The notes under the pieces: generated by a model | Databases searched by the model: none | What the model was told of the DNA's origin: nothing | The model's input: the letters and a program-made list of their open reading frames with translations, nothing else | In this document: positions 1,674-58,340 of the stretch, one piece after another | How positions within the stretch are numbered: position 1 is the first letter of the stretch | How the letters are laid out: every line of letters starts with the position of its first letter | Position numbers and translations under genes: made by a program | Assembly: GCA_017676145.1 (NCBI GenBank) | Contig: GCA_017676145.1_3628.1 | Reading direction: 5' to 3' (one strand) | Length of the DNA stretch: 64,000 bases | DNA from: a phage

Positions 1674-1760
1674 GTTCTCCTGAGAAAATTCCTTAAGGAC
1701 TATTTTAACACTTTAGAGAACAAAATGCAAGAACGGCATCCTTGCCGTTCTGACCTTTGT

Positions 1761-2075
1761 TTACCTTTTACTATGCTCTACAAGCATGTGTAAAATCTTT
1801 TGCACATCGGCTCTGATACCGGAGACATCTGTCCTGACATCTTGCTTAAGGTCGTTAATATCGGCCTCTAGCTTACTTAACCGGGTCTCAATAATGGAAT
1901 CAAGTCTATCTTTTGTAACCATGCTATTTTTCACTAAAATGAGGTCTTTCTCCAGCTCATCCAACCTCTTGGAAATGCCTTTCCATTTGGTGTGCCACTG
2001 GTTGAAAGCCCATACACAGATCGGGACAACGGTACCCATGCAGATACCGTACAATGCCGCCAAATCCAACTCCAC
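1761..2075 (-). CDS. membrane-anchored coiled-coil protein (holin, antiholin or exclusion candidate)
   Basis: 104 aa; N-terminal hydrophobic helix LAALYGICMGTVVPICVWAF followed by a charged heptad-like region. Confidence 0.35.
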   Translation of the reverse strand: MELDLAALYGICMGTVVPICVWAFNQWHTKWKGISKRLDELEKDLILVKNSMVTKDRLDSIIETRLSKLEADINDLKQDVRTDVSGIRADVQKILHMLVEHSKR

Positions 2076-2086
2076 AACACCTCCTC

Positions 2087-2671: not shown

Positions 2672-2685
2672 GCTAGTCCTCCGAT

Positions 2686-3726
2686 CTACGCATAATTAAC
2701 AGTGATCCATTGACCATTTACAAGTTTCTGTAAAGGCCCTGCCCAGTAGGTTGAACCACGCATCTCTTTTTTATCACCAAAATGCCAACCTGTGACAACG
2801 TAGCCGTTGCGAACTGGAGATTCAGAAACACCATCAACAAGTCTTGCGCCGATTCTGATATCCTGTACACCTGTCTGCGGGATGGTGATCGTTACATCCC
2901 CGTTGCCGTTAGCCGTCACTCCATTCACAGAGCGCACCACATTTCTGTTACCGACAACACAATGCTGGCTTCTTACAACCATACTGTCACAACTTGCACC
3001 GCCATTGACATATACTGACCCAGCCGTCAACTGACTAGCTACATTGCAGTTGGTGAATGTTGCTGTGCTGCTAATGGTGAGGTTATTACATCGCATGTTA
3101 TCAACAACTTCAACATTGCCCACCACTTTCAACAACGCACGATTAGCCGTGATTGCGTTCAGATACATCAAAGTGAACTCTGGGTTAATGTCAGGCTGAG
3201 TTGGCTGAAATCTCCAACGGAACGCATCTACTGTAGAGGTGCCACCATCATCAAACGCCCCAATATTATCACTTAACCCAAAGTCGAGAGTTGTCTTATC
3301 TGGGCCAATAGTTGTCTCTATCCAAGCCTTATCTGTCTCGGCAGCTTTAAAGTTGATACGTTGCAAACCCAATGGGCCTGTCATTGTATCACCTGTAACT
3401 TTCACATACCTGGCGTCTGCCTCTTCCTTAGTAATAATACCAAGGTTTCTACGGGCAACAGGGATGTTCAAAAGATCACTCAAGTTATTATCACGTACCA
3501 GATAACGGCCTTCTTGAGCGGGGATCTGCTCGTCAGCAATGTATTTTGCCCAAGTCCCGAGCATATTGAAAATATAGTTAAGTTCTTCACAGGATGGCTT
3601 TTGACCAAGATCCCAACCTTTTCTCCACAAATCATCAATCGGGCGTAGCCTGTTCTGTCTGTGGGTGTTAGGCAGAACCTGATCCTCCTCTGCCCAAATC
3701 TCTAATGGAAAACTAGGTTTTGACAT
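2686..3726 (-). CDS. tail fibre protein (paralog A)
   Basis: 346 aa; GDTMTGPL motif; C-terminal KLVNGQWITVNYA; paralog of 627-1673. Confidence 0.6.
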   Translation of the reverse strand: MSKPSFPLEIWAEEDQVLPNTHRQNRLRPIDDLWRKGWDLGQKPSCEELNYIFNMLGTWAKYIADEQIPAQEGRYLVRDNNLSDLLNIPVARRNLGIITKEEADARYVKVTGDTMTGPLGLQRINFKAAETDKAWIETTIGPDKTTLDFGLSDNIGAFDDGGTSTVDAFRWRFQPTQPDINPEFTLMYLNAITANRALLKVVGNVEVVDNMRCNNLTISSTATFTNCNVASQLTAGSVYVNGGASCDSMVVRSQHCVVGNRNVVRSVNGVTANGNGDVTITIPQTGVQDIRIGARLVDGVSESPVRNGYVVTGWHFGDKKEMRGSTYWAGPLQKLVNGQWITVNYA

Positions 3727-3738
3727 TTTATCTCCTGA

Positions 3739-5811: not shown

Positions 5812-6497
5812 TAACCCTCCTGTCTAGTTGCGTTTACTGTAATACTTTCACAATAAATAGTTGTGGTGTCCCAATCAGGTCTTACGTCAGGAACATATAG
5901 CAAAGTAGCCAACCCACCAACTCCGAACTGGTTTTCTTCCCACACCGATCCGAAGCCGAGAGCTGTAGAATCGCCTTCAAAACCAAAAGCTTGTCCTTGC
6001 GATTCTGTAAGACGCAAATGACAAGGCAGTGGTAGCATATCTAAGATCTGATCTATGGACTGTAATATGTCAAAGCAAGTTTTTCTAATGTTTATGTCAA
6101 ATCTAAAGTTGTCACCTTTCCACGTATCGAAATTGTCTCTTCCGAACAATTGTCGCAAGGTTGAGATGACATCTTCACGAGTCCCGCCCCTCGATGCTGC
6201 TGCCTGCTGAATAATCAGGGTAGCACGAAAATCAGCATCTGAAAGCCCATTCCGAAGAATACCGAGTTGATTACCAACTTCGTCAAGGTATCTTCCACTG
6301 GCATTGTTAAGCAATCTTCCTTCAGCCAAACCTACCAGCATCTTATCAACATTCTCCAACCTTTTAAGGTACACGGTTAAGAATGTGACTAAATTAACCT
6401 TCTCAGCCAGAAAATCTCCAGGCAGGTAGTCAAGACCCCCCTGAACAAAATCTGGCAGAGTGTGGATGTGGTTAACATCCGACTTAATCTCTGCCAT
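5811..6497 (-). CDS. hypothetical tail protein
   Basis: 228 aa ORF, start codon overlaps stop of upstream gene; operon position. Confidence 0.35.
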   Translation of the reverse strand: MAEIKSDVNHIHTLPDFVQGGLDYLPGDFLAEKVNLVTFLTVYLKRLENVDKMLVGLAEGRLLNNASGRYLDEVGNQLGILRNGLSDADFRATLIIQQAAASRGGTREDVISTLRQLFGRDNFDTWKGDNFRFDINIRKTCFDILQSIDQILDMLPLPCHLRLTESQGQAFGFEGDSTALGFGSVWEENQFGVGGLATLLYVPDVRPDWDTTTIYCESITVNATRQEG

Positions 6498-6509
6498 ATC
6501 CCCGCCGCC

Positions 6510-8000
6510 TTAAATAGTTTGTTGGAAAGTTATATTGCTTTCATCGAGGTCAAACACCTCGGTCATGTTCGCAACAACATCGTTTGTAGTGTAAGCTTCG
6601 TCAGAGGCTCCTACAGGTTTAACTTGAATTACCAATCTGTTAAATCTGCCTATCGACACAGCAGCCGATGCAGCACCTACCAATTGGATATTATACAACG
6701 TATCGGCAACATCTAAGCCGTTAACAACTTGCAAAAGAGCCTCTGTAATGGCATCTTTTTCGGTAGTAGAAAGCGCAGCACCTGAGTAGGTAATTCTCAT
6801 ATCCAGGCGGTAAGTGTTTGCCTTAGAATAATAAATCCTTTCAGTCTGACCGTCTGATGTGGTAATATCGTAGAAGATATTCCCATAAGTTCTATTTGTG
6901 CAAGCTATGGTTTGATACAGCGCCTGACAGATATCCTCTGTTGCACCACCGAACACCACCACTTGAAACTTATAAGGTGGTATACCTTTCGCATCCGTTT
7001 TATCGGTGTTGTTAGAGAACACTCTTACTTTCTCAACACCCTTCACCTCGCTTACAGCGCTAAGGATTGCAGGACGGGTAGCTTTAGATGTTAACTGTTT
7101 AGTGCTGGAAGCTCTTAAGCGATACTCTGAGTCCTTCTCAACATCCCTGCCCTCATTGAATCTTTCTCGGTTGGTAAGCTTGATAAATCCGCTGGGAGTA
7201 GGCGACATTGTTGTCACGGTTTCTGCCTCTCTTGACAGCTCACCAGCCTCGTTAGCTATAACATCTAAGGTGATAGTTCTTTCACCTACAATCGGGGATA
7301 CTCTGAAATCTACTCTGCTATTAAGACCAACTTGATCAAGATTCGAATTGTATCCTATCCACAACGTTCCTGTCAACATATCGATCTGAATCAAATCGTC
7401 GTTCAACAGGGTTGTATTATCTACAATGAATTGCTTAATCTCGCCGTAAAAGCTTGGTAAATCAGAAGAGTCCAGAGACTTATCGGTTAAAACCAGACTT
7501 TTTGTTTTGATACTTCCATCTGTCTGGTTGGTAATTTGAAAGTTGTATTTACCAATCCTTAGGTCTGGAGCATTTATTCTGTGAGCAATAAGATTCCCTG
7601 CTACTTGCACATCGTTGCTAAGAACAAAGTTGCCACTGTCCAGCGTATAAGTTTTGGAATCATAAATCATATTGTACGGCACAGTTGTGTTGATTGTCAA
7701 CTGGCAAGTACCCGATGATTTAGAACGGCCTCTTCGGTAAATACCCTGTCTTCCAAGAAGCTCATCCAGGTAAATACCTTCTGCCCCATACAGCGTCTGT
7801 GATGCGTATACAGATGCTGCCATAAGAATAAGTTGATACTCTCGCTCGTTGAAGATAGTGGTCAGCTTATCTGCAACGGAGTTACTCTGTACGTTGAAGT
7901 TTTCGCCAAAAGCACGGATCAGGCTTTGCTTAGTTTCAACGATTAGGTCATTTAGGGTTGGTATAACGAAACCAGCCTCTGTCAATCCATACTTAGCCAC
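6510..8000 (-). CDS. hypothetical tail or fibre-associated protein
   Basis: 496 aa ORF in tail module; no motif recognised. Confidence 0.35.
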   Translation of the reverse strand: MAKYGLTEAGFVIPTLNDLIVETKQSLIRAFGENFNVQSNSVADKLTTIFNEREYQLILMAASVYASQTLYGAEGIYLDELLGRQGIYRRGRSKSSGTCQLTINTTVPYNMIYDSKTYTLDSGNFVLSNDVQVAGNLIAHRINAPDLRIGKYNFQITNQTDGSIKTKSLVLTDKSLDSSDLPSFYGEIKQFIVDNTTLLNDDLIQIDMLTGTLWIGYNSNLDQVGLNSRVDFRVSPIVGERTITLDVIANEAGELSREAETVTTMSPTPSGFIKLTNRERFNEGRDVEKDSEYRLRASSTKQLTSKATRPAILSAVSEVKGVEKVRVFSNNTDKTDAKGIPPYKFQVVVFGGATEDICQALYQTIACTNRTYGNIFYDITTSDGQTERIYYSKANTYRLDMRITYSGAALSTTEKDAITEALLQVVNGLDVADTLYNIQLVGAASAAVSIGRFNRLVIQVKPVGASDEAYTTNDVVANMTEVFDLDESNITFQQTI

Positions 8001-8070
8001 GTCACTCCTCCGGTATGAAAATCTCTACAAGGTATTTTACCAAATTTTGTAACAATAGTCAATCTGAGCA

Positions 8071-8096
8071 TAAAAATAAACCCCGCCGAAGCGGGG
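8071..8096 (-). terminator. rho-independent terminator or attenuator after the J-like gene
   Basis: plus-strand CCCCGC-CGAA-GCGGGG hairpin preceded by an A-run, which reads as hairpin plus U-run on the minus strand. Confidence 0.5.
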
Positions 8097-8105
8097 CTTT
8101 AAAGG

Positions 8106-11100
8106 TTAGTCGTGAGACTCGTTCCAAGGTCCCTGGAAGCTTGAGTTAGAACGACTAACGATCACAGTGGGACAGGAGATTGTGACACCTGTCACGCTAG
8201 ACGTTGACCACGGTGTGTAAATCTCGATAACAATGTCTATAGTTTGTTCACCCAGACCTGTTATCCCTACCGCACACATGCCGTTGTTGTCGTTAAAATA
8301 CTTCTTGCCAGCAAGGATCTGATGACCAGCTATCCATGCATTCAGTTGGGAGCTGGCAAGAGTACCATTCAGTTTAAAGAAGAATGTTACGTTCTTACCC
8401 TGACCTGAAACGTTATCTACGTATCTCCACCTCCAACGGCAAACCCTTTGCTGGGAGTTATATACTGGAGCACAATCCCCGTAAGTCCTGTGTGCAACAA
8501 TTGCACCTTCGAACTGGTTAGCGCGGATAACAGAAGCTTCTACACGACCACGGAAGGTACCTCCGGTTGCATCTATGGTGCCTCTAAAGCTACCATTATT
8601 GGCATAAACATCCCCACGGAAGGTACCACTGGTGGCGTTAACTGCCCCTGTGAAGTTACCTGCACTAGCGTTGATGTTACCTTTCACCCACACATCCATA
8701 AACTGGGCGTGCCCGTTCTTGTTAATATACCAACCGTATTTGTGGTACCCGTTGCCATCGTAGTTGTTAGACGAAATTTCTTGTGCAATCTTGGCAGAAG
8801 AGATCGTCCCGTTCTCTATAAAGGCATCTTTCAAGAACGCTTGGTTGTTCTTAATTGCGAAAGCAAGGGTTGCTGTTCCATTCCCAGGGTTGTATACCGC
8901 AAAGTTGTTTGCACTAACCATGAAGTATGATTGAACTTGGCCTCCAGAACCTTCCATGCCCAATTGGATACCTGCCACATACTTATTCCCTGCGGAGTCT
9001 ACCTGTATTTTTGTGCCCCATTGAGCATTTACTTTGCCCTCTAAGTCGGTCACAGCCTTAGATGTTGTAGCCACTGCAGCTCTTAGCTCTGATACATCCC
9101 CAACATCATCAATGATCTCCTGCTTAGCAACAGCAAGTTCTTGACGAATAGCTGACGCTGTGCCGTTAATAAGATCCACAGTTGCTTTGTTGGTATCGGA
9201 GATTGTAGCGTCCAGTGCTGTTTTTGTGGAGGTCAGCTTACCATCCAAATCCGCAATCGCCTGTTTGTTGGTAGAAATCTCCCCACGTGCAGAAGTTATC
9301 TGCTCAGACAGTGCGGAGGTTTTCTGATTCAACAAATCTGTGGTGGCCTTGTTGGTATTGGCAATCAAGGTATTGAGATCAGTTTTTGCGGTAGTTATCT
9401 TACCATCAAGGGTGGCATAGTTCTTAGATACCGTCGCGTTTGTCTGACTGATCTTTTGATCCAGAGTTTCAGAGGTCCTGTTAAGAAGATCCACTGTCGC
9501 CTTATTGGTGCTCAAGATGCTTGCGTCAAGTTCTGTTCTCTGGGTATTGATCTTGCCATCCAGAGTTTTATCTCCGGCAAGGTATCCGCTCTCCACTCCA
9601 CCTATTTGTTCTACCAACTCCCCTTTGGCTGCAACCAATTTCTCGTCTAAAGCCTCTGTCTTTTTGTTCAGAAGATCAGTGGTTGCTTTATTGGTTGTCT
9701 CAATCAGGGATGCCAGTCTTCCACTTTCAGTGTTCAGATCGTTGGTGAACTTGTTCTGTGCAGCAACAAGTTTCTTATCCAGCGCTGTGATATTGCCATT
9801 GACATCCTCAAACTTCTGAGTTGTCTCTGTAACTACAGCACCTATCCTATCCCCAAGTTGTTGGAATGCCTCATCTACCCTTCCGTCCATGTACTTGTTA
9901 AGTTCTGTGACACGATTTTCAACCTCTTCAATAGAGGAATCTAAAGTGCTCATCAACTCTTTATAAGTTTCTGTCTTTTTAAATTCAGCATCTATCTGAG
10001 GCATCAAATCTTCAATGGAGGTATAGCAGCGTGCAGCACACTCTACAAACTGAGAACTACCAAAAGCATTTGTGGTTCGAATATACCAATAATAAATCTT
10101 ATCGTTCTGCAGACCTTCAGATGTCCAAGTTGAACCAACACCCATGCGGGTGGCTTTTGAAGTAACGGTTGCATCACTTGTGTCCGGCAACCTTGTCATA
10201 CCAGATGTCCAAAAGTCATACTGGGTGCTTACACTTGCCAAGTCCCTACTGTGTGGAATCAGGGTGATAGCAAAGTACCCCTGCTTAACTTCTACAGAAA
10301 CCGGAGCTTCAGGTGCCTGAATGTTAAACTCGCAGTACGCTTCTGGAGATACACCGCCTTTATAAGATGTTGCAACCACGGTTGCTGTGTATGACCCTTT
10401 GGTCAATCCTTCTACGCGGACAAACTGCTCGACTGTTTGTGCTGTCCAAATAATCTCTCCGTTCTTTCTTACCTGCACAATATTTTGAGCGTAAGTCCCA
10501 ACGTTGTCCCAAGCTAAAACACCGTGAGTTACTTCTCCAGCTTGGAGAACGGAATATCTGAAGTTTTGCGGTTGAGCTACACCAGATGGGGATATCGGAA
10601 TATCTACATCGCCAGAATCCGGAAGTTGCCCTGTGGCATCATTCCACTCTTTAGCATCTTGACGAAGTTTTACCTTGACACCGCCCTTTTTGGTGAACTC
10701 CCATTCAAGAACCCTCATTTCTTGGCCCACTATACCAATACTTGGGAGGTCCATTGTAACATAACGGCCAGGCTTAAATTTAAAACCTCGCATATTGCAG
10801 GTGACTTCAATAATCCTGCCAGCTCTAGCACGTCTTAAGAAGATTGCAGAAACACGTTGAGCTTGATAAGGACTGGTAACAAAGCGATAGTCTATATCGA
10901 TTATCTTTCTTTCTCCATCCTTCTCTATCCACTCTGGTACAAACACTGATGGGAAATCTGTTTCAGAATACCCTTTGGTCGGACTAGTGAATCTGCCAGT
11001 TATCGTGTTAGATCTTTTGTCAAATGAGGCTTCCGGATAGATCTTAACCTCACCACAGACACAGTCCTCACTCAATGTCATTGTTGCCGGACCATAGTAT

Positions 11101-43622: not shown

Positions 43623-44201
43623 TCAACGTTCGTAGTAAATCTTATTCAACATTACCTCATCGTTTGCAGAAAGGATATCAAGATATGCATCACCAAATCT
43701 GCCTGCAACAACCTCTGCATGATACATCACTTCGTCAACATCGTCAAGAGTGATAACCGGATGACCATATCTTTCTGAATATTGCCTCAGGGTGCGATGT
43801 AACGAGTCGTCATCATATGCAGACTTTTTAATATCACAAACACGACGAATGGCCTTGATGTCGAAAAAACCTGTGCGATACCACCCAAGAAAAAAGTTCC
43901 GTGTGGTGTCAACATCTACATCAATACCATCAAGAACTTTATCTACAAGATAGCTGTCATCCTTTGGACCAGCGTCCTTAGTGCGAATGTAGTTGCCATC
44001 TTTTCCAGGCGATAGCTCCTTCTCATCACCAACCTGCATGCCATCATTTGGCGGTGTTAGCCACTTATCCGGATGCTTACGATCACGAGCGTTAGAATGA
44101 TTACGCTGGAAACCTGGCTTCCACTTGAAAGTTTTCTCCATCTGTTCTTCATTCTGATAACGTTTTGCAATCTTTTCGCGGTCATCTTTGCGTGAACTCA
44201 T
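43623..44201 (-). CDS. hypothetical protein
   Basis: 192 aa ORF with GAGGAGG Shine-Dalgarno upstream of ATG at 44201. Confidence 0.4.
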   Translation of the reverse strand: MSSRKDDREKIAKRYQNEEQMEKTFKWKPGFQRNHSNARDRKHPDKWLTPPNDGMQVGDEKELSPGKDGNYIRTKDAGPKDDSYLVDKVLDGIDVDVDTTRNFFLGWYRTGFFDIKAIRRVCDIKKSAYDDDSLHRTLRQYSERYGHPVITLDDVDEVMYHAEVVAGRFGDAYLDILSANDEVMLNKIYYER

Positions 44202-44706
44202 AACTGCCTCCTCTTCAAGTTATAGAAAAACTCACTGTATCGCTTTGTAACGAGCTTTTCTATCAAACTGGTGCGATTGCCTTACTTGGTATAGTTTACG
44301 CAGCTGTGTGGCGATTTAGGGGCCTTCCTGTCCGTTTCCACACATAAACTTTAACTAAACTCGCGCGGGAGGCTCTCAACCGACTCCTTACGGCGCTGGC
44401 AAGCTTTCGTCGGTGGTCCACATTAGTGCTCGGCCTTTGGCCTGCGCTATCGCTTCGCTCCCACACATGTTAACAGTCCTGCATGTATGCACTCCTGTCA
44501 TTGTGTGCACTATGGAGGCCCGGCATCTCGCCCCTCGTAGGCGAGTGCCAATGAAGGGCCGACACTACCAATAGTAAGTAATAAATTTAAAACATGGTAC
44601 TTAGGATCTAGTATATTCTACATAAGTTAAGTATATGTACTTTAGTACCATAAGTACTAGATCTTTTATTTTTTATTATTTAGTTATTTTAGTTATATTC
44701 TTTATG

Positions 44707-44787
44707 TGTCCGTATTGCGGACAGTTAGTGTCCGTATTACGGGCAGATGTGTCCGCGTGACGGACAGTAGTGTCCGTATCACGGACA
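44707..44787. repeat. iteron array: four 17 bp dyad-symmetric repeats at 21-22 bp spacing (origin or operator candidate)
   Basis: TGTCCGTATTGCGGACA (44707-44723), TGTCCGTATTACGGGCA (44729-44745), TGTCCGCGTGACGGACA (44750-44766), TGTCCGTATCACGGACA (44771-44787); adjacent AT-rich tract 44600-44700. Confidence 0.6.
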
Positions 44788-44862
44788 GTTACTACCCTCT
44801 GCTCTTGGATGGACATAAAACATACGAATCCTTATAGTGCAGATATTTAAGTTTTCACTGGT

Positions 44863-45213
44863 CTAACCAGTTGTTGACATTCGAATAACCTCTTCTGGTG
44901 GCAAAACTTTGGAAAATGTGCATCTTTTACCTCTCCCTTGTGTGGATATTTCAACCACTCCTGCACATTCTAAAGTTTTAACGCACGCTGCTGCTTTTGT
45001 TTTCTTTATCCCAACATCTGCTGCAATTTTCCTTGTGCTGGGTGTGAAGCGTGAATTTCCTCCAAGCTTATACCAGTTGTGCAGGTAGCAGTATACGATC
45101 TTGTCATACAAGTCAAGAACAACAACCTCCCCGGTTGTGTCATTCAAAACTTTTGACATAGACAGTATTTCAAGGGGGACTTTAAGATATAGCAGCTTAT
45201 CCCCATCTTTCAT
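44863..45213 (-). CDS. helix-turn-helix DNA-binding protein (candidate iteron-binding or replication initiator)
   Basis: 116 aa; PSTRKIAADVGIKKTKAAACVKTLECAGVVE has helix-turn-helix character; gene ends about 75 bp from the iteron array. Confidence 0.4.
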   Translation of the reverse strand: MKDGDKLLYLKVPLEILSMSKVLNDTTGEVVVLDLYDKIVYCYLHNWYKLGGNSRFTPSTRKIAADVGIKKTKAAACVKTLECAGVVEISTQGRGKRCTFSKVLPPEEVIRMSTTG

Positions 45214-45260
45214 ATCTCCTGATTCTCCTTGTGTGGCAATTTTCTTTAAAATAGCAGGGA

Positions 45261-45815
45261 TTACTCCCCGCTGTCAATAGCAAGACTCATTGCAATACGG
45301 TATGCCTCTTCTAATGGTAAGAGTCTCCCCCACACATCCCAACCGACATCAAACTGCCTGCCAAACAACTGTTGCGTGGTTCCGTGAGCATGACCGAACA
45401 GTTGGACTGATCCGTGATGCTTTCTGTTCCACGTTGCAAACTGGTAATGACTCATACAGATCAAATTCTTGTTGTGGCGAAACTCGTAATAATCTACAAC
45501 CTCATGATAGAACTCTTTCATAATTCTGACAGTCGTCCTTGTGTCATGGTTGCCACGAACAAGAATAATATGTCCGTTCAACATATTTAGAATATCTGGA
45601 AGTAAGTTGTTGATATTCTTATCATTAGTGCACGCAATATCCCCCAAGTGGAACACAGTGTCTGCAGGTGACACAACAGAGTTCCACTCGGTGATGATTC
45701 CAGCATTCATACTGTCAAGATTGTGATCATACTGAGATCTGTGTTTTTGACACGAGTCAAACTCCATGACCCGCTGGTGGAGAAAGTGTGTGTCACTTGT
45801 TACAAAGTATTTCAT
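45261..45815 (-). CDS. calcineurin-like metallophosphoesterase (candidate RNA 3' end-healing phosphatase)
   Basis: start at internal ATG 45815 with GAGGAA Shine-Dalgarno; motifs SDTHF, LGDIACTND, RGNHD, GHAH. Confidence 0.6.
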   Translation of the reverse strand: MKYFVTSDTHFLHQRVMEFDSCQKHRSQYDHNLDSMNAGIITEWNSVVSPADTVFHLGDIACTNDKNINNLLPDILNMLNGHIILVRGNHDTRTTVRIMKEFYHEVVDYYEFRHNKNLICMSHYQFATWNRKHHGSVQLFGHAHGTTQQLFGRQFDVGWDVWGRLLPLEEAYRIAMSLAIDSGE

Positions 45816-45822
45816 ACATTCC

Positions 45823-46233
45823 TCATTTAAGTTTAATGCAGTTTTTAAGCTGGCGTTCCATACGATCCACGACCATGTCTGGAACATCATGAATGCTTTT
45901 ATTACCGTGGCGGTTTTCAACCACGATTACGGTATAACTATACCCATGACTGATTGCCATGTCAACATATTCTTGCACATGTTTTTCTTTTGTAAACGTA
46001 TTACTTACCACGATACGGTCGTATCCCATACGCATCATATCTTCTACGTTATCTTTGCACCATTTTGCTGCAAGTGTTACTTTACTTGCATCCCAGTTGT
46101 AATTGCCGTCATCGTCGTACCAGAACATGTCGTTCTCAAAATGTGGATACAGACCTTCTAAAGATAGCGCATTTGCCAGTGTTGATTTGCCAGACCCTGG
46201 TAGACCACGCACGATATATAGCATTTTAGACAT
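45823..46233 (-). CDS. polynucleotide 5'-kinase (T4 Pnk kinase-domain-like)
   Basis: start at internal ATG 46233 with GGAGG Shine-Dalgarno; P-loop GLPGSGKST; IVVSNTFTK and VPDMVVDRMERQL parallel T4 Pnk kinase motifs. Confidence 0.7.
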   Translation of the reverse strand: MSKMLYIVRGLPGSGKSTLANALSLEGLYPHFENDMFWYDDDGNYNWDASKVTLAAKWCKDNVEDMMRMGYDRIVVSNTFTKEKHVQEYVDMAISHGYSYTVIVVENRHGNKSIHDVPDMVVDRMERQLKNCIKLK

Positions 46234-46351
46234 AGCGGCCCTCCGTTTTAATTTTAATGATAGTATAGCGTGCTCTTTTGAACATTTCAAGTGTTGACAT
46301 GATGCTGTTTGTGTGGGAAGATTGTGGAACAAAATGACAAATGAGGAACGT

Positions 46352-47269
46352 ATGATGAAGTATTTTAATGCAGACGACCTAGTTGACAAAGGTCTTGTAA
46401 CCAGCAGATATTACCCAGATCTTGGATTAAAGATCTATAAATATGCCAGAAAAGTATTTTACAACAATTTATGGCATTTGTCTCCTCGTTTGCTGGAGTG
46501 CCGGGGAATTGTTGTCGGTAATGAAGGAAATGTTGTGGCATGGCCCTTCACAAAAGTGTTTAACTTGGGAGAAAACTCCACCAACCTGCCTGACAATAAG
46601 CTTGTGACGGCGGTAGAGAAAAAGAACGGATTCCTTGGTGTGGTATCATCTCATAAAGGTGAACTATTGTTCTCAACAACCGGATCTCTTGATTCTCCAT
46701 ATTGTAACCTCGCAAAGGAAACCATCCAGGAGCAATGTGGTAATTTAGATCTTATCAAGAAGGTTATGGGCAAAGAAAACATGACATTCATGTTTGAAAT
46801 TTGTCACCCTTCAGATCCGCATATTGTTCAGGAAGATCATGGCGCATATTTGATAGGCTGCAGATATAATGATTCTGGAATAATGCTACCAGAAGCAGCT
46901 TTAGATGGGATTGCCAAACACCTTGGTGCAAAACGTCCTCACACTGTGCGTGAAATTCCGTTCAGCTATGCAAAAGAATTAGCTGCAGAAACAAGAGGTG
47001 AAGGGTATATGATTCGTAAGCCTTACTACCCTTATGACCTGCAGCTGAAGATCAAGTCTCCATACTATCTGGCACGGAAGGCCGTAATGAGGGGTAAGGC
47101 TTGGAAGATTTGGGATGATGATATCTTTAAACGTATTGACGAAGAGTTTTACGGCATGGTAAACTTCATTCGTAGCAATTACACAGAGGATGTGTGGAAC
47201 TGCCTCCTGGAGCAGGAACGCCGTGAGATACTTGATTGCTATTTCCACAACGAGGACTATATGCAATGA
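46352..47269 (+). CDS. RNA ligase (Rnl2-like nucleotidyltransferase)
   Basis: motif I-like EKKNG, motif IV-like EGYMIRKP, motif V-like KIKSPYY; start chosen at ATG 46352 after GAGGAA. Confidence 0.55.
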   Translation: MMKYFNADDLVDKGLVTSRYYPDLGLKIYKYARKVFYNNLWHLSPRLLECRGIVVGNEGNVVAWPFTKVFNLGENSTNLPDNKLVTAVEKKNGFLGVVSSHKGELLFSTTGSLDSPYCNLAKETIQEQCGNLDLIKKVMGKENMTFMFEICHPSDPHIVQEDHGAYLIGCRYNDSGIMLPEAALDGIAKHLGAKRPHTVREIPFSYAKELAAETRGEGYMIRKPYYPYDLQLKIKSPYYLARKAVMRGKAWKIWDDDIFKRIDEEFYGMVNFIRSNYTEDVWNCLLEQERREILDCYFHNEDYMQ

Positions 47270-47616
47270 AGAAGTTGATTGTGTGGCTTGATGATTTTAG
47301 AGATCCGTCAGATTATGGACTCCCAGACGCTCTGTGGCTAAAGAATTCTTCTGAGTTTATGGATTTCATCGATGACAAGGGAAAGCTATATAGACGCGTT
47401 TCTGAGTGGCATTTTGACAGCGACTTGGGAGAAATTTTTGAAGGATACGATTGCTTCTGCATACTAGAGGAAAAATTTGTATTTGGTAAGCCTCCTGTAG
47501 TTGACAACGTGAAGATTTTCGTGCATACTTCTAACCCATCAGCGGCTCGTAAATTCATGCTTGCTGCTGACTCGTTTAAAAAGTTTGGAATAGAGATTAA
47601 ACAAAACATCTACTGA
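47266..47616 (+). CDS. hypothetical protein, adjacent partner of SIR2 gene
   Basis: 116 aa from ATG overlapping upstream stop (ATGA); begins MKKLIVWLDDFRDPSD; single HTS motif; no family recognised. Confidence 0.4.
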   Translation: MKKLIVWLDDFRDPSDYGLPDALWLKNSSEFMDFIDDKGKLYRRVSEWHFDSDLGEIFEGYDCFCILEEKFVFGKPPVVDNVKIFVHTSNPSAARKFMLAADSFKKFGIEIKQNIY

Positions 47617-51916: not shown

Positions 51917-52381
51917 GTGGAAGACGGACGTTTAATGAAGTCTGAACGCAGGCTTATTGTGCAACTGATCCCAGAAACAGCTTGGTATAATAACCTCCGA
52001 AACGCTGTGAAGAAGAGTGAGTGGGATAAGATCCGTAAGAAGTGCTACAGAGAAGCCAACTACACTTGCGAGGTGTGTGGTGGCAAAGGTAGCAAACACC
52101 CTGTGGAGTGTCATGAACTTTACACCTTCGAAGAGGGGGTGATCCGGCTTGTCGGACTGATAGCCCTGTGCCCAGATTGTCACACATCGGTGCATCCTGG
52201 GTTAGCAAATATCCGTGGGAAATATGCTCAGGCAGTTAATCAGTTGGCTAAGGTAAATAAGATCACTAAGGGCATGGCTGAAGCTTATTACCGAGACTGC
52301 TTTGCAGAGTGGCGGGAGCTTAGTAAAGTTCCGGAATGGAAGACCGACTTTTCGTGGATAGAGGGTTACCTTGATGGCTAA
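51917..52381 (+). CDS. zinc-finger protein, possible HNH-type nuclease
   Basis: CEVCGG...ECHELYT...CPDCHTSVH cysteine/histidine pattern. Confidence 0.35.
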   Translation: MEDGRLMKSERRLIVQLIPETAWYNNLRNAVKKSEWDKIRKKCYREANYTCEVCGGKGSKHPVECHELYTFEEGVIRLVGLIALCPDCHTSVHPGLANIRGKYAQAVNQLAKVNKITKGMAEAYYRDCFAEWRELSKVPEWKTDFSWIEGYLDG

Positions 52382-52664
52382 GAAACCTGTAAAAGAAAAA
52401 TTTGATAAGACAGCTTTTGTATTCGATACACCTCTGGACGACATTATTAGAGGTATGCAATCATTGTACCGGAAGGCTGAATCTGATCAGTTGTCTGAAT
52501 CAGAACTTTACTGGCTTGGTTGGTGGGAGCTAAACCTTCCTAAAGCTGAAAGTTCTTGTCTGAGAACTGTTAAAACGTGCGCCCAAGAAAACGCTGCACT
52601 TGGAATCTACCACAAAAGGAAAAGATCAACAAAAAGCTCTCCAAGGAAGACTAAAAAGTCTTGA
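52371..52664 (+). CDS. hypothetical protein with basic C-terminus
   Basis: 97 aa ORF. Confidence 0.3.
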   Translation: MMAKKPVKEKFDKTAFVFDTPLDDIIRGMQSLYRKAESDQLSESELYWLGWWELNLPKAESSCLRTVKTCAQENAALGIYHKRKRSTKSSPRKTKKS

Positions 52665-52690
52665 CAAAAGTGTTATTAATCTGATATTAT
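52661..52690 (+). promoter_or_regulatory. sigma70-like promoter candidate
   Basis: TTGACA (52661-52666), 18 nt spacer, TATTAT (52685-52690); AGGAG and ATG at 52724 downstream. Confidence 0.45.
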
Positions 52691-52723: not shown

Positions 52724-53032
52724 ATGCTTAAAATTTTTATTGTTGAAGATAAAGATATTGTCCAGTTGTATGCAAACGAGAATCATAAAGGTATGATCCT
52801 GAAGAAGGCAAGCAACCTTCATGAAAACACCATTCAACCTGGCGATGTAATTAAGATCTGTGGCTATCTGATACCAGACTCCTTGATGAAAATAACCCAC
52901 CACTGGGGGTCTAATCCGTTCCTTTTTGAAAAATATTGGGATGTTGAGTCGCTTATTGCAGAGAGTGATGATGCATTCCATTACAGCATCCAACCATCTT
53001 GCAGAGTAACTAACAGGAGGGTCTTTGAGTAG
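52724..53032 (+). CDS. hypothetical protein
   Basis: 102 aa ORF with AGGAG Shine-Dalgarno. Confidence 0.3.
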   Translation: MLKIFIVEDKDIVQLYANENHKGMILKKASNLHENTIQPGDVIKICGYLIPDSLMKITHHWGSNPFLFEKYWDVESLIAESDDAFHYSIQPSCRVTNRRVFE

Positions 53033-54164
53033 AGAATATCCACTTATTGAGTCCATAGATTGTCTAGCTAATCTTCTTGAACCTGACGCTATAGTTTATT
53101 ATGACTTCGATCAGGTTGCATATCAAGCTGCAGCAAGTTGCGAAAAAAGGACAATTGAGGTAACACACAAAGCCTCCGGACGTAAGAAGATGTTTAAAAC
53201 ACGAACAGAGTTCTGGGGGCGGCAGAAGAACACAGTTGGTGGTTGGTTAAAAGCTGAGAATACCAACCGTGAAGCTGCATGTAAAAAGGCTGGCAAGGAG
53301 TTTATTCCGTGGACACGAGAAGATTTCGATGTCTTGGATATCCAAACCCCTGATCCTGTAGAGAACTGCTTGCACACAATTAAGTGTAAAGCTAATGCAG
53401 TCCTTAATTATCTCGGTATTCCGGAAGATCGGTGCGTGGGGGTACTTGGAGGCACAGGTAATTTCAGACTAGATCTTCCCATGCCGGAAAGATATAAAGC
53501 CAACCGTAACAACACTCTTCGACCACTGCTGCTTGGAGATGCAAGACAGTATCTCCAAAAGCAGTATAATGCTCAAGTGATCAACGGTATCGAGGCTGAC
53601 GACTGGTTAGCTATCCAGCAATTTGAAGGTTGGAACCACTACCAAAAAACAGGTAAGTTCAACAAGTTTATTATCTCTATTGATAAGGACCAAAGAACAC
53701 TACCGGGGCTTGTGTTCGATCCCATGCGAAACGATAAGGGAGATTTTGTAAGGGAAACCCCTATGCTGATCGATAACGGTATGGGGAACATCTTCATGAA
53801 GCCTAATGGAGAGGTTGGTGGTTACGGGATGCTGTTCTTCGGATACCAAATGCTGTGTGGTGACTCTGCTGACAATATCAAGCCGTATCAAGGACTTATC
53901 GGTAAGGGTAAGTTCGGGGATGCCTCAGCATTCTACCTACTGTCTCAGTGCAGCACTCCAAAGGAGATGTGGGTGGCTATTATTGATCAGTACAAGAAGT
54001 GGTTCCCGAAAGGTGTTGTTAAGTATACTGACTTCAATGGTATTGATCGCAGAATTTCCGTAGGTCAATGGATGAGTATAATTTTTGACTGTTTGTATAT
54101 GAAGCGAACATTCAATGATCAAACAAAACTTGTTAACGTTCTTAGAAATGTTGGAGCAATTTGA
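53025..54164 (+). CDS. flap endonuclease / 5'-3' exonuclease
   Basis: LCGDSADNIKPYQGLIGKGKFGDASAFYLL matches the H3TH motif of FEN-family nucleases. Confidence 0.7.
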   Translation: MSREYPLIESIDCLANLLEPDAIVYYDFDQVAYQAAASCEKRTIEVTHKASGRKKMFKTRTEFWGRQKNTVGGWLKAENTNREAACKKAGKEFIPWTREDFDVLDIQTPDPVENCLHTIKCKANAVLNYLGIPEDRCVGVLGGTGNFRLDLPMPERYKANRNNTLRPLLLGDARQYLQKQYNAQVINGIEADDWLAIQQFEGWNHYQKTGKFNKFIISIDKDQRTLPGLVFDPMRNDKGDFVRETPMLIDNGMGNIFMKPNGEVGGYGMLFFGYQMLCGDSADNIKPYQGLIGKGKFGDASAFYLLSQCSTPKEMWVAIIDQYKKWFPKGVVKYTDFNGIDRRISVGQWMSIIFDCLYMKRTFNDQTKLVNVLRNVGAI

Positions 54165-54496
54165 TGACTAAAAATGCTGTAGATAACGCAATTATGGAAG
54201 CTGTTTTTGAGGATGATCATACAACAGGGACACTTAAAACAAAAAACACATTCGTTGTTGCCACAGGTGTGTGGCGGTTGTATGAAGATGACACCATTTC
54301 ATACATCCTGTACACTGATGATTACGCAGATGACCGTGTATGGTCTGCTGTTTTAAAAGAGGATTGTGAGCTGATTGAGGGCGAGCGGTTATGCATGTTC
54401 ACCAGTGTGGAAACAGATGTTAAGCTTTGCTCTCTCGTCTTGTTCAAAGATAAGGCTTATGCTCCTGATGAAGGAGAGGAGGATGAGGAAGCATGA
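54161..54496 (+). CDS. hypothetical protein
   Basis: 111 aa ORF. Confidence 0.3.
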   Translation: MMTKNAVDNAIMEAVFEDDHTTGTLKTKNTFVVATGVWRLYEDDTISYILYTDDYADDRVWSAVLKEDCELIEGERLCMFTSVETDVKLCSLVLFKDKAYAPDEGEEDEEA

Positions 54497-55122
54497 GAGA
54501 GCGTCTATTATCCATAGACCAGTCGTTGACACACACAGCTTGCGTTGTATGGGACGATGGAAAGCCTGTTCATAAGGTTGTGTTACGAACTCAAAGCTCA
54601 TCTGCAAAAGAGAAGAAACCAGGGACGGTTTCTTTTGCAACAGCTGCTGAGCGTATTGACTGGATCTGCAAACAGGTTAGATATTATATCCACACGCACG
54701 GCGTTGACACCGTGGTAATGGAAGGGCTCTCCTTCGGATCGCGAGGGGATGCTACACGTGAACTGGCTGGGTTGTTTTACGGTCTTGAAGTTATGTTATG
54801 GGATGCTTTAGCGGATTGTGAAAATGACGGCCTGTTTAAGGTCCACACAGTGACACCTACAACTGCCAAAAAGTTTGCTCGTAGTCATCTACCTGAAGAA
54901 CTTGCTTTTGAGGAGAAGAAAAAGCTTGACAAAAAGACAGGTAAAGAGCATACTGTGAAGAAACCTGTTACGATGGATAAAAAGTTGATGGTCAAGGCCT
55001 GCGAAGTATCTGAACCGGGGTTCCTAGATGGGATCAATTTAGTACAAGGTAAGGCCGATCTTGCAGATGCTTATTGGATAGGCAGGGCGCATCTGGAGGG
55101 ATTATCGCAAAGCGTAAAATAA
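54493..55122 (+). CDS. RuvC-like resolvase candidate
   Basis: LSIDQSLTHTACVV and VVMEGLSFGSRG resemble RuvC-fold catalytic strands. Confidence 0.4.
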   Translation: MRERLLSIDQSLTHTACVVWDDGKPVHKVVLRTQSSSAKEKKPGTVSFATAAERIDWICKQVRYYIHTHGVDTVVMEGLSFGSRGDATRELAGLFYGLEVMLWDALADCENDGLFKVHTVTPTTAKKFARSHLPEELAFEEKKKLDKKTGKEHTVKKPVTMDKKLMVKACEVSEPGFLDGINLVQGKADLADAYWIGRAHLEGLSQSVK

Positions 55123-55679
55123 GAAAGAAAGCTGTCAAAGCCCCCGTTCATAGCGGGTGGCTAAAAGATTCTAAAGATATAGCTAACTTTCGGAAAGAAT
55201 TGTCAGAAGAGCAGGATGGTCTTGATCCGATCTTGTGCGAACCACTTCGTAAGCCTTGTTTAGATCACGATCATCTGACTGGTCGTTGTAGAGGTGTTTT
55301 GTCCCAATGCACTAATACCTTTGAGGGGTATGTGCTTAAATACTGGATGAAATACTGTAACGAGTATACAGATTGCAGTTTATCAGAGGCGTTGCGCCGG
55401 ATGGCTGACTATCTGGAGAAAGACTACAGCGACTTCCCGCTCCACAAAAACTACAGAGATGATATGACAAAGTTCTTGAGGAGATGCTCTAAGGCTACGA
55501 TTATTGCACGGGCAGAATCGGATCTCGATCTTGTCATTAATTCAGAGTACACCAAGCATGAGGCTATTGAGGCATACATGCAGGAGTTTATAAAGAAAAC
55601 TGAGGAGAGAGATTTCTATGGGGATGAAAAAGGTATTCAATCCTTGCGATTCAGTTCTGATCAGAATGAAATACCGTAA
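55074..55679 (+). CDS. endonuclease VII-like junction resolvase (T4 gp49-like)
   Basis: CLDHDHLTGRCRGVLSQCTNTFEG parallels T4 endo VII zinc/His-Me finger region; true start may be downstream of 55074. Confidence 0.65.
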   Translation: MDRQGASGGIIAKRKIRKKAVKAPVHSGWLKDSKDIANFRKELSEEQDGLDPILCEPLRKPCLDHDHLTGRCRGVLSQCTNTFEGYVLKYWMKYCNEYTDCSLSEALRRMADYLEKDYSDFPLHKNYRDDMTKFLRRCSKATIIARAESDLDLVINSEYTKHEAIEAYMQEFIKKTEERDFYGDEKGIQSLRFSSDQNEIP

Positions 55680-55839
55680 CTGGAAAGGTGTTGTTGCAGA
55701 TCGCTGCGTTACTGAGCCTAGTTTATGGTTTGGATCTACAGAGTATCATAAAGAAGAGCAGTGGTTGATGCATGCATTTGATGTAGACAAGGGCGAATAT
55801 CGTGACTTCGCTTTAAAAGACATTCTTCAGTTTTACTAA
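55618..55839 (+). CDS. hypothetical protein
   Basis: 73 aa ORF. Confidence 0.25.
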   Translation: MGMKKVFNPCDSVLIRMKYRNWKGVVADRCVTEPSLWFGSTEYHKEEQWLMHAFDVDKGEYRDFALKDILQFY

Positions 55840-55851
55840 GGAATCTTAACG

Positions 55852-56835
55852 ATGATGACAAAGTTAACTCTTGAGCAAATTTTAACACTGAAGCAACAGG
55901 GATACACTAATAGACAAATTGCTCGTGAATTTTTAGGTCGTGAGTCACGTGAGAGCTGGATCCGGCTACAGCTTAAACGTGCACAAGAGAATATGTCAGA
56001 GATTGTAGGAGAGGCAACGGAGCGCTTCCTTGAAGAACACAAAGGTGCTAAAGTTTGGGTGTATGATACAGAAACATCCCCAACAAACGGCTGGTTCTTT
56101 GGGCATTATAAGACCAACATTCAAACCTGCGGTATTGAAATTATGCCCTATATGCTAACTTTCGCAGGTAAATGGTTAGACAGCCCTAGCGTGGTTGACT
56201 GTGCTCTCCCTGATTACAAAATGTGGGGCGAGGATATCCACAACGATCTTGAGCTGATTCAAGATTTGTGGTATTATTTGGATAAATGTGATGTCGCAGT
56301 AGCACACAACTCTGGTTTTGACTGTGGGTGGGCCAACCAACGATTTGCATTTCACGGTTTGCCGCCAACAAGCCCCTACAAAGAGGTTGACACCCTCAAG
56401 ATGATTAAAAAGGCATTCCGTTTGAATGCAAACACGTTAGAGTATGCATGTAAATACTTCCAACTGGCCCGACAGAAACTAATTGACCACACATTTGAAA
56501 TGTGGATCAAGTGCGTTCATGGTGATCTTGAGGCGTTTAAACAGATGCGGGAGTATAATGTTGGGGACATCTTGTCTCTGGAAGGCCTGTATTTGCTGGC
56601 GCGTCCGTTTGCTAAGCAGCACCCCAACATGTCGTTGTACTACCAAGATGAGGAGTCAAAAGTTCGTTGCCCACGTTGTGGTGGAGAACACCTTCACGAG
56701 GAAGAGGCTTTGGCGTATACTCAACTGAGTGCATTTAAAACCTACCGCTGCGAAGGTTGTGGATCTGTTGTTCGTGATCGTAACAACATCCGTACCCGAG
56801 AAGAGATGAAAAACACCCTGATTCAGATAATCTGA
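55852..56835 (+). CDS. DEDDh 3'-5' exonuclease with N-terminal helix-turn-helix and C-terminal zinc ribbon
   Basis: Exo I VWVYDTETS, Exo II VAHNSGFD; N-terminal LTLEQILTLKQQGYTNRQIAREFL; C-terminal CPRCGG...CEGCG. Confidence 0.6.
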   Translation: MMTKLTLEQILTLKQQGYTNRQIAREFLGRESRESWIRLQLKRAQENMSEIVGEATERFLEEHKGAKVWVYDTETSPTNGWFFGHYKTNIQTCGIEIMPYMLTFAGKWLDSPSVVDCALPDYKMWGEDIHNDLELIQDLWYYLDKCDVAVAHNSGFDCGWANQRFAFHGLPPTSPYKEVDTLKMIKKAFRLNANTLEYACKYFQLARQKLIDHTFEMWIKCVHGDLEAFKQMREYNVGDILSLEGLYLLARPFAKQHPNMSLYYQDEESKVRCPRCGGEHLHEEEALAYTQLSAFKTYRCEGCGSVVRDRNNIRTREEMKNTLIQII

Positions 56836-56843
56836 CAAGTAGA

Positions 56844-56872
56844 GGGAGGCTTGCGCCTCCCCTTTTCATTTT
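56844..56872 (+). terminator. rho-independent terminator
   Basis: GGGAGGC-TTGC-GCCTCCC hairpin followed by CTTTTCATTTT. Confidence 0.6.
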
Positions 56873-56881
56873 GGAGGCACC

Positions 56882-57688
56882 TTGAGCAAGAAAGAGTCCA
56901 ACGACAAATATTACACAGACCCTGAGTATGCAGAATATCTTGTTGGTAAAGTAAAAGCTAGGTATGGGAATTGTGCATACGTTGAGCCTTCTGCTGGAAA
57001 GGGTTCTTTTTCAAAACTATTTTCAGAGATACTGTCGTACGATTTGGTACCAGATCCTGAATTTGAAGGCCCAACACCGTGTATTAAGGCAAACTTCTTA
57101 GAGGTGTACCCTAAGGCTGATGTCTTCATAGGTAATCCTCCATTCGGCAAAAATTCGTCTTTAGCTTGCAAGTTCTTTAACCACTGTGCATCATTGCTAG
57201 AGCCTGGCGGGGCTATAGCCTTCATCTTGCCACGGACATTTGAAAAAATATTTTTTGCAAACAAGCTGGACATGTCAATGCACCTTATCTACAGCGAAAG
57301 GTGCCCCAAGAACTCGTTTTTACTTAACGACAAACCTTATGACGTGCCATGTGTTTTCCAAATTTGGGAGAAAAAGGTGTGCAATAGGGATCCTGTAGAG
57401 ATTGGAGAGAATAAGCTATTTTCTTTTAGCACACCGGATGACTACGACTTCTGCATAAGACGTGTTGGATATAATGCTGGAAAAGTATTGGGAGATGATG
57501 ACCCAAAATCTGAAGAATCAACATATTTCATAAAATCTTTAGTTGATGGTGTTGACAGAGTGTTTGCTGAATGCTATTCTTCTTTTCAAGAAGAAGCAGG
57601 TAAGACTGCTGGAATGAAGAGTATAGGCAAGAAAGAACTACAATACATTTTGGAGACTAGGTATGATCAAAAGTATAGACTTGACTAA
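56882..57688 (+). CDS. DNA N6-adenine methyltransferase (putative)
   Basis: TTG start after GGAGG; AdoMet motif VEPSAGKGSF and catalytic NPPF motif FIGNPPFG. Confidence 0.6.
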   Translation: MSKKESNDKYYTDPEYAEYLVGKVKARYGNCAYVEPSAGKGSFSKLFSEILSYDLVPDPEFEGPTPCIKANFLEVYPKADVFIGNPPFGKNSSLACKFFNHCASLLEPGGAIAFILPRTFEKIFFANKLDMSMHLIYSERCPKNSFLLNDKPYDVPCVFQIWEKKVCNRDPVEIGENKLFSFSTPDDYDFCIRRVGYNAGKVLGDDDPKSEESTYFIKSLVDGVDRVFAECYSSFQEEAGKTAGMKSIGKKELQYILETRYDQKYRLD

Positions 57689-58121
57689 AGAGCTTACTGA
57701 TGCAAAAGCTTTTGGTGAGACAGCCGTGCAAAGGGGGCAGGCTATGGGGCTGGCACTACCTTTTGTCTTAAAAGAGCATTTTACAGATTTTCAGCTTATC
57801 CGGGGCGAAAAGGGAATGCTTATTCTGGAACATAAGCTGAGTAAGAAACGTTATAAAGTTGTTTTTAATTCTAAAGCTCCAACAAAACTTGGATTCAGAA
57901 CTTACAATCTCAACCCTTCTTATACTAAGGGTGTTGGAAGAGTGGAGCAGCAGCATCTCAGTGCTAGAGCTTCTTTGGCCCCTTTGATGCTAAATTTCTC
58001 AGGCGTGGCTTTGGGATACCTGGATAAGAAAAGAGTTCTTCATGTTCGTTTTACAGACTTTGTAACGCTTTTAGCTAACAACGAAGTAGATGAAAAGGGA
58101 CGTGTAAAAACAAACTTCTAA
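57663..58121 (+). CDS. hypothetical protein overlapping methyltransferase 3' end
   Basis: 152 aa ORF; no motif recognised. Confidence 0.3.
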   Translation: MIKSIDLTKELTDAKAFGETAVQRGQAMGLALPFVLKEHFTDFQLIRGEKGMLILEHKLSKKRYKVVFNSKAPTKLGFRTYNLNPSYTKGVGRVEQQHLSARASLAPLMLNFSGVALGYLDKKRVLHVRFTDFVTLLANNEVDEKGRVKTNF

Positions 58122-58136
58122 TAACGTGCAGTATGA

Positions 58137-58340
58137 TTGGAGACCGCAATGACACCAGAGTTAACAATTCCAGACAGCTTTTCAGAAAGCTTTATCCCAG
58201 AAATGATGAATAAGATGCGATCATTGCTTGATCAGATTGAGGAGGCTGTTTGGGAAGACGATGCCGTAGTAGCTAACGAACTGGTAGATAAGTGTAAAAG
58301 TATTATTGATGCAGTTGAAGAATACCACGGAGGTTTTTAA
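58137..58340 (+). CDS. hypothetical small acidic protein
   Basis: 67 aa ORF. Confidence 0.3.
   Translation: METAMTPELTIPDSFSESFIPEMMNKMRSLLDQIEEAVWEDDAVVANELVDKCKSIIDAVEEYHGGF

Follow-up and report, generated by a model that had tools for sequence, protein, structure and literature searches.

A block of nuclease genes in an rV5-like phage

We analysed a 64,000-nucleotide stretch of phage DNA (contig GCA_017676145.1_3628.1 of assembly GCA_017676145.1), hereafter the window, with respect to the block of recombination and nuclease genes at 54493-56835 on its plus strand. The block encodes a putative RuvC-family junction resolvase of 209 amino acids starting with ATG (54493-55122), a putative nuclease of the T4 endonuclease VII (EndoVII) family, 201 amino acids long if translated from a TTG codon (55074-55679), a 73-amino-acid open reading frame (ORF; 55618-55839), and a 3'-5' exonuclease of 327 amino acids starting with ATG (55852-56835). 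A first-pass annotation, made from the letters alone, had placed two different junction-resolvase families side by side here, and both are present with intact active sites. Our analyses revealed the family and fold of the three enzymes, the conservation of their active-site residues, and a gene order that is kept across several genera. We consider it probable, at roughly 0.8, that Vequintavirus has a conserved DNA-processing unit of seven genes and that the block is its downstream half.

A database search with the 5.2-kb query 53000-58200 retrieved 121 phage records at 90-99% identity, the closest being Escherichia phage YP-6 (98.7%); the RefSeq record of phage FV3 matches at 95.8%. Judged by sequence, the window is a Vequintavirus of the Vequintavirinae, the rV5/FV3-like myophages of E. 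coli.

The RuvC-type resolvase

The ORF at 54493-55122 had been put forward as a RuvC-fold candidate, and its reading frame, family match, fold and acidic tetrad all agree with that proposal. The 209-residue protein matches phrog_159 ('RuvC-like Holliday junction resolvase') with an E-value of 3e-39. Thirty-three homologues were found by database search, and the most distant of them, 157-161 amino acids in length, carry Pfam RuvC (PF02075). A single-sequence search of the PDB with the window protein gave nothing meaningful, a profile search of the same database reached D. radiodurans RuvC at an E-value of 0.2 only, and hhalign against E. coli RuvC aligned the region of E77 alone, to E. coli E66.

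After these weak sequence searches, it was the fold search that settled the identity of the protein. The AlphaFold (AF2) model has a predicted local distance difference test score (pLDDT) of 91.9 and a predicted template modelling score (pTM) of 0.88. When the model was submitted to Foldseek, PDB ranks 1-13 were all occupied by RuvC, from T. thermophilus, D. radiodurans, P. aeruginosa, Lactococcus phage bIL67 and E. coli, with E-values from 3e-8 to 5e-5 and TM-scores of 0.70-0.78 on the target (best match 4ld0, E 2.8e-8, TM 0.74). The modelled structure confirms that the protein belongs to the RuvC family, with a predicted RuvC-type RNase H-like fold.

The first-pass annotation had made this assignment depend on the catalytic acidic residues of RuvC, and all four are present on alignment. 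In 24 sequences of the family (alignment A1), E77, D189 and D192 are invariant, while D9 is absent from one truncated sequence alone; a lysine, K163, is conserved as well. The four acidic residues fall on the catalytic positions of bacterial RuvC in a profile alignment with the D. radiodurans protein, and MAFFT aligns them with D7, E66, D138 and D141 of an E. coli RuvC sequence entered by hand. One feature sets the family members with the longer chain apart: a lysine-rich insertion of ~26 amino acids (residues 134-160; 54892-54972, plus strand) has no counterpart in the 157-161-residue RuvC homologues. It is predicted to form a beta-hairpin, with AF2 strands at residues 139-145 and 152-158 (pLDDT 93-97).

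The endonuclease VII-type nuclease and its start

The product of the second gene matches PF02945 (score 31.7 bits, cut-off 23.6; E 1.4e-7), phrog_423 'endonuclease VII' (E 4e-37) and phrog_29095. The phmmer alignment to the T4 EndoVII structure 1e7d (E 2e-4) covers T4 residues 37-152 of 157, from the catalytic core into the C-terminal helical domain that serves dimerisation and DNA binding. T4 residues D40, H41, H43, N62 and E65 correspond to D64, H65, H67, N81 and E84 of the window protein. These alignments confirm the 201-residue protein as a predicted member of the T4 endonuclease VII family with intact active-site residues. The zinc site is another matter. The T4 ligands of the structural zinc, C23, C26, C58 and C61, align with residues other than Cys; the window protein has C55, C62, C72 and C79 instead, of which sister genera keep only part, and the canonical CxxC...CxxC arrangement is retained in a phiKMV-like EndoVII homologue.

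An endonuclease VII-like gene overlapping the RuvC gene had been noticed on first reading. Both genes are there, and the overlap amounts to 49 nucleotides if translation begins at TTG 55074. This codon is the sole canonical start ahead of the EndoVII domain and lacks a Shine-Dalgarno sequence. There is a GGAGG further on, at 55095-55099, followed in frame by ATT and ATC codons (55101/55104). The N-terminal tail of ~30 amino acids is rich in K and R, and tails similarly rich in these residues are found in other genera. Since the tail spans the RuvC stop codon and recurs in those genera, the gene overlap is real, at ~16 nucleotides or more. A downstream start at TTG 55200 was considered and rejected, as homologues from other genera align from residue ~29 onward and the basic tail recurs. 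Because TTG 55074 has no good ribosome-binding site, the annotation in several public records is confined to the last ~110 amino acids of the protein and leaves out the catalytic domain.

The three-part exonuclease

The 327-residue protein matches phrog_403 'DNA polymerase exonuclease subunit' with an E-value of 9e-111, and its family occurs in 1528 phage records. A profile search collected 446 homologues, mostly of 310-325 amino acids, with marine metagenomes and phages as their main sources; the Pfam domains precomputed for them are PF13482 (RNase_H_2), PF00929 and PF10108. A helix-turn-helix (HTH), an exonuclease domain and a zinc ribbon had been read from the sequence, and this three-part build is supported, for the HTH moderately, by N-terminal AF2 helices and a C-terminal CxxC-x23-CxxC motif. 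The class of the exonuclease has to be revised.

The catalytic domain comprises residues 66-255 (56047-56616) and is supported by conserved motifs, family Pfam matches and Foldseek. Among 45 aligned family members (alignment A3), the invariant residues include D72, E74, N153, D157, Y235, N236 and D239, which give the motifs ExoI D-x-E, ExoII N-x3-D and ExoIII Y-x3-D. The first-pass annotation had called the enzyme DEDDh, but Y-x3-D is invariant, there is no His five residues before D239, and H213 is not conserved. HMMER places the 'SHEG' region of the family near H162 of the Pol III epsilon subunit, but within the rV5 clade this His is not kept, and no Asp stands at +5; the DEDDh assignment was rejected. 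By its motifs, the enzyme is a DEDDy exonuclease of the PolB-exo-like type (PF13482/PF10108).

For the window protein itself, the sole exonuclease-domain Pfam match is RNase_T, at 21.7 bits and under the cut-off of 24, and the NCBIfam DnaQ score is 26.7 against a cut-off of 196. Across the family, RNase_T matches 41 of the 45 members, RNase_H_2 39 of the 45 (PF13482 at E <=0.01) and DNA_pol_B_exo2 36 of the 45, and the homologue of Aeromonas phage phiA009 reaches 52.2 bits with PF13482 against a cut-off of 22. In Foldseek, Pol III epsilon and archaeal PolB exonuclease domains are near-equal (E ~3-5e-5).

The N-terminal part (residues 1-62; 55852-56037) is modelled as an HTH-like three-helix domain with a linker helix, the AF2 helices lying at residues 7-15, 20-27 and 34-62 (pLDDT 77-91). 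The Pfam HTH matches of the window protein (HTH_38, HTH_7) are weak and under threshold (E 0.03-0.09), and those of the phiA009 homologue also lie below threshold (HTH_7, E 3.8e-4; HTH_SB, E 1e-3). MerR, HTH_11 or other HTH models match ~15 of the 45 family members, and the family profile matches the PAI subdomain of Sleeping Beauty weakly (E 0.24). Together with the model, an N-terminal HTH is moderately supported. In many of the phage records with this exonuclease, including phiKMV-like phages and mycobacteriophages, the match begins near residue 65 and the HTH is missing, so that this domain appears to be an accessory rather than the functional core.

At the C terminus, C273-x2-C276 and C300-x2-C303 (56653-56766) would form a Cys4 zinc ribbon with AF2 strands at residues 281-289, 294-300 and 306-308 (pLDDT ~70). 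Eight zinc-ribbon Pfam models match, all weakly or below threshold. Within the family, C273 does not vary and C300 is conserved to at least 90%; most marine homologues have lost the latter Cys of both pairs. The sequence pattern supports a C-terminal Cys4 ribbon in the window protein.

The seven-gene unit and its neighbours

Seven packed or overlapping plus-strand genes lie between a promoter-like site at 52661 and a terminator-like site at 56844. The former (52661-52690, plus strand) is a sigma-70-like candidate, TTGACA-18-TATTAT with TG, that agrees with the consensus at 11 of 12 positions. The latter (56844-56861, plus strand) begins 9 nucleotides past the exonuclease stop codon and consists of the hairpin GGGAGGC-TTGC-GCCTCCC, with 7 pairs of which 6 are G-C, followed by a T-rich tail resembling that of an intrinsic terminator. 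These flanking sites suggest that the seven genes may form one operon.

The unit opens with a 102-amino-acid ORF (52724-53032), which is 'transposase-like' or hypothetical in public records and has no significant Pfam match. It is followed by a 379-residue FEN-type 5'-3' exonuclease (53025-54164), which matches phrog_107 'exonuclease' (E 1e-70) and the 'RNaseH' gene of the phiKMV-like phage Laguja-5 (BLASTP, E 4e-8); the motifs EADD, DKDxRxxPG and GDxADxI are common to these two proteins. The FEN-type assignment is founded on the PHROG match and the shared motifs; no Pfam or PDB sequence match was found for this protein. A 111-amino-acid ORF (54161-54496; phrog_7583) then leads to the RuvC gene, and a small gene stands in the equivalent place in Salmonella and Acinetobacter relatives. 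Between the EndoVII and exonuclease genes, the 73-amino-acid ORF (55618-55839) matches phrog_3715 (E 6e-26) and carries a weak SH3/WYL-like signal, with weak WYL and WYL_2 matches. It overlaps the 3' end of the EndoVII gene by 62 nucleotides, and GGAGAG lies 7 nucleotides ahead of its ATG. This small protein also gives weak Sm-like SH3 matches, and Acinetobacter phage ABPH49 has a homologue in the equivalent position.

On a larger scale, nucleotide-metabolism and DNA-processing genes lie on the plus strand from ~46 kb onward; before that point the long ORFs are on the minus strand, and the sign of the GC skew flips at ~46 kb. Just upstream of the unit is an HNH endonuclease gene (51917-52381; phrog_5200, E 2e-72), and relatives carry extra homing endonuclease genes nearby. 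Directly past the terminator lies a gene for a putative N6-adenine DNA methyltransferase of 268 amino acids (56882-57688; phrog_5172, with weak Eco57I and MTS matches), which is overlapped by a 152-amino-acid ORF (57663-58121; phrog_9938). A third resolvase was considered in the 67-amino-acid ORF at 58137-58340, which has a RusA match at E 0.014 over profile positions 83-114 of 124; we judged this match to be probably due to chance.

Conservation and history of the gene order

A matching gene order was found in a Salmonella phage, Acinetobacter phage ABPH49 and Vibrio phage S4-7, with a looser arrangement in Aeromonas phage phiA009. The phiKMV-like podovirus Laguja-5 has, in order, a DNA polymerase, a hypothetical gene, a 5'-3' exonuclease, EndoVII and a DEDDy exonuclease. 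All three of its nucleases are homologous to those of the window; the phage has no RuvC gene, and its exonuclease is without an HTH. The simplest reading is that an old module of three nucleases (5'-3' exonuclease, EndoVII and DEDDy exonuclease) is common to phiKMV-like and rV5-like phages. The rV5-like lineage would then have gained the RuvC gene between the 5'-3' exonuclease and EndoVII, as well as the HTH on the DEDDy exonuclease.

Sequence searches with the block turned up 20 GenBank records of 'Campylobacter phage' (MG0656xx, host C. jejuni) whose proteins are 99-100% identical to those of E. coli rV5-like phages here. Their C. jejuni host label looks like a mislabel or contamination.

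Two resolvase families in one lineage

The first-pass annotation regarded tandem resolvases of two types as uncommon. For phages in general this view stands, as EndoVII and RuvC resolvases are reported, in a comparative study of jumbo phages, to be nearly complementary in their distribution (PMC7824862). It does not stand for the present lineage, where the pair is fixed in the whole subfamily and in relatives. This type of RuvC occurs in 273 phage records, 259 of them at a coverage of at least 80%, and EndoVII adjoins the RuvC gene in phages of Escherichia, Salmonella, Acinetobacter, Vibrio and Aeromonas. Record PQ002171.1 already gives the labels 'RuvC-like Holliday junction resolvase', 'endonuclease VII' and 'DNA polymerase exonuclease subunit' to neighbouring genes. 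In a paper of 2026, the genes listed for a Vequintavirinae phage include a RuvC-like resolvase (PMC12942863), and EndoVII is named, on the analogy of T4, in papers describing genomes of the subfamily. The block is already known by annotation and is ordinary, being present in more than 100 published phage genomes.

One may ask whether both enzymes act on junctions. The remodelled zinc site of EndoVII and the clade-specific 26-residue insertion of the RuvC-like protein could each speak for a different task, and the tendency of the two families toward mutual exclusion in jumbo phages implies that redundancy would not be kept. Only one 'resolvase' would then process junctions, while the other would be a nicking or homing-type HNH enzyme, if this were the EndoVII-like protein, or would degrade host or competitor DNA, if it were the RuvC-like one. 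We consider this unlikely, as the active sites are complete in both proteins. Moreover, the EndoVII aligns across the C-terminal helical domain of the T4 enzyme and is syntenic across genera, not mobile, and the model of the RuvC-like protein superposes on junction-bound T. thermophilus RuvC.

Role of the exonuclease

Going by public annotation, the 327-residue protein would be a subunit of the phage DNA polymerase that proofreads in trans. The phrog_403 label and many GenBank labels ('DNA polymerase exonuclease subunit', 'DnaQ-like') say as much, but these are transferred annotation. The fold matches to Pol III epsilon and PolB exonuclease domains are consistent with proofreading. In FV3 the polymerase belongs to family A and is T7-like (E 6e-15 to gp5 of T7); its N-terminus keeps ExoI D-x-E and ExoII, as 'FDFEAS' (T7 'SDIEAN') and 'YSYDF', respectively. 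Its ExoIII Tyr is apparently replaced by Arg in an alignment made by eye, which would favour a proofreader in trans. The polymerase gene is, however, encoded ~50 kb away from the exonuclease gene, which sits within a nuclease and recombination unit. In FV3 the polymerase gene (43803-47422, outside the window) is split by an HNH endonuclease gene into parts of 809 and 118 amino acids.

The wider context of the family also bears on this question. In a marine siphovirus-like contig, a homologue of the exonuclease lies two genes past NinG, with an ERF recombinase upstream, and no polymerase was present within the 15 kb of this contig that were read. This context favours recombination or end-processing over obligate proofreading: the exonuclease gene adjoins EndoVII here and in Laguja-5, its homologue lies in the NinG/ERF contig, and the polymerase is distant and has its own ExoI and ExoII motifs. 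It is plausible that the enzyme is not a simple proofreader, and we regard the role of a proofreading polymerase subunit acting in trans as improbable.

In small siphovirus-like marine contigs (6108-9082 of one and 865-3836 of another), the homologue is found between NinG (with a 110-amino-acid ORF) and a DUF3310 gene, shortly ahead of the portal gene; adjacency to DUF3310 was also seen in Pseudomonas phage TC6. A terminase-like role was considered on account of the nearby portal genes in marine contigs, and was rejected, since an ATPase domain is lacking and Terminase_6N is encoded by a gene of its own in a further contig of this kind.

That the exonuclease is sequence-targeted or regulatory, steered by its HTH and ribbon to DNA sites or signalling nucleotides, is very unlikely: the three-part build is kept over hundreds of homologues and HTH-type Pfam models match several members, but the Laguja-5 protein (257 amino acids) lacks the HTH, mycobacteriophage matches begin near residue 65, half of the ribbon cysteines are gone in most marine members, no cognate repeat or operator was seen, though none was looked for, and nothing ties DEDDy PolB-exo-like domains to cyclic-oligonucleotide cleavage.

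Proposed function of the unit

If the block is the downstream half of a conserved DNA-processing unit, as we believe, the unit would process the branched and concatemeric intermediates of phage genome replication and recombination. The FEN-type enzyme would take off 5' flaps and primers. Four-way junctions arising from recombination-dependent replication would be resolved by the RuvC-type enzyme, which is presumably a dimer, and the EndoVII-type enzyme may, as in T4, clear the DNA for packaging by acting broadly on branches and mismatches. The DEDDy exonuclease could trim the 3' ends or flaps of these intermediates, with the HTH and the ribbon adding DNA affinity.

A more detailed version, in which non-redundant resolvases, coupled translation, an exonuclease acting as a recombination end-processor instead of a polymerase subunit, and an ancient shared module are all taken together, is tentative and on balance doubtful. 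Under that version, the RuvC-type enzyme with its lysine-rich hairpin would be devoted to recombination-dependent replication. EndoVII, with its zinc site relocated or lost and its basic tail, would be devoted to packaging-linked debranching. The overlapping reading frames might set the ratio of the two enzymes through translational coupling.

Several points weigh against the proposed functions. The 209-residue protein has no Pfam or NCBIfam RuvC match of its own. Without the T4 zinc cysteines, as read from the alignment, neither the fold stability nor the activity of the EndoVII-type protein is guaranteed. How the two resolvases would share the work is drawn from analogy with T4 gp49 and with the bIL67 and bacterial RuvC proteins, and the promoter- and terminator-like sites behind the single operon are consensus matches. 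The apparent change of the ExoIII Tyr in the FV3 polymerase leaves room for a trans-acting proofreader. Finally, the publications that we found are genome descriptions, and none of them reports experiments with these proteins in Vequintavirinae or with the 'DNA polymerase exonuclease subunit'.

The significance of these results beyond the tidying of annotation is small. More than 100 rV5-like phages with sequenced genomes carry the block, several being in use, or suggested, for the biocontrol of E. coli, and their public records give the RuvC-type gene as 'RNaseH' or 'hypothetical' and the exonuclease as a polymerase subunit or 'DnaQ-like' without evidence. Such records can be corrected to a RuvC-type resolvase, a full-length EndoVII and a DEDDy, not DEDDh, exonuclease. 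Some modest questions follow. One is why this lineage keeps two resolvase families that elsewhere tend to exclude each other. Another is what role a widespread free-standing DEDDy exonuclease plays where the polymerase apparently contains a proofreading domain itself. The remodelled zinc site of EndoVII and the insertion of RuvC pose further ones.

Comparison with known systems

The exonuclease has the DEDD fold in common with the E. coli Pol III epsilon subunit (DnaQ), to which it shows weak sequence matches and whose structure 2ido is the best single Foldseek match (E 3e-5). The two differ in class, as epsilon is a DEDDh enzyme with H162-x4-D167, whereas the window family has an invariant Y-x3-D and no corresponding His. 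The DEDDy motifs are those of the stand-alone phage exonucleases of PF13482/PF10108, such as gp189 of Vibrio phage ICP1, the phiKMV-like proteins and the mycobacteriophage 'DnaQ-like' proteins, which belong to the same family; we found no tested function in the literature for these relatives. Unlike the phiKMV-like and mycobacteriophage members, the window exonuclease has a predicted HTH, and unlike most marine members it has the full Cys4 set.

The RuvC-type protein shares the modelled fold, the four acidic residues and the lysine with bacterial RuvC (4ld0, 1hjr) and with bIL67 RuvC (4ktw), at 13-17% identity. It differs from all of these in the predicted hairpin insertion at residues 134-160 and in the loop at residues 105-115. 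Neither RuvA nor RuvB accompanies it within the window.

The EndoVII-type protein corresponds to T4 gp49 (1e7d, 1en7, 2qnc) in its active-site residues and in the similarity of its C-terminal helical domain, the two being 23% identical in a multiple alignment (A4). It departs from the T4 enzyme in the positions of its cysteines, in the extra basic tail, and in a putative non-ATG start that overlaps the preceding gene.

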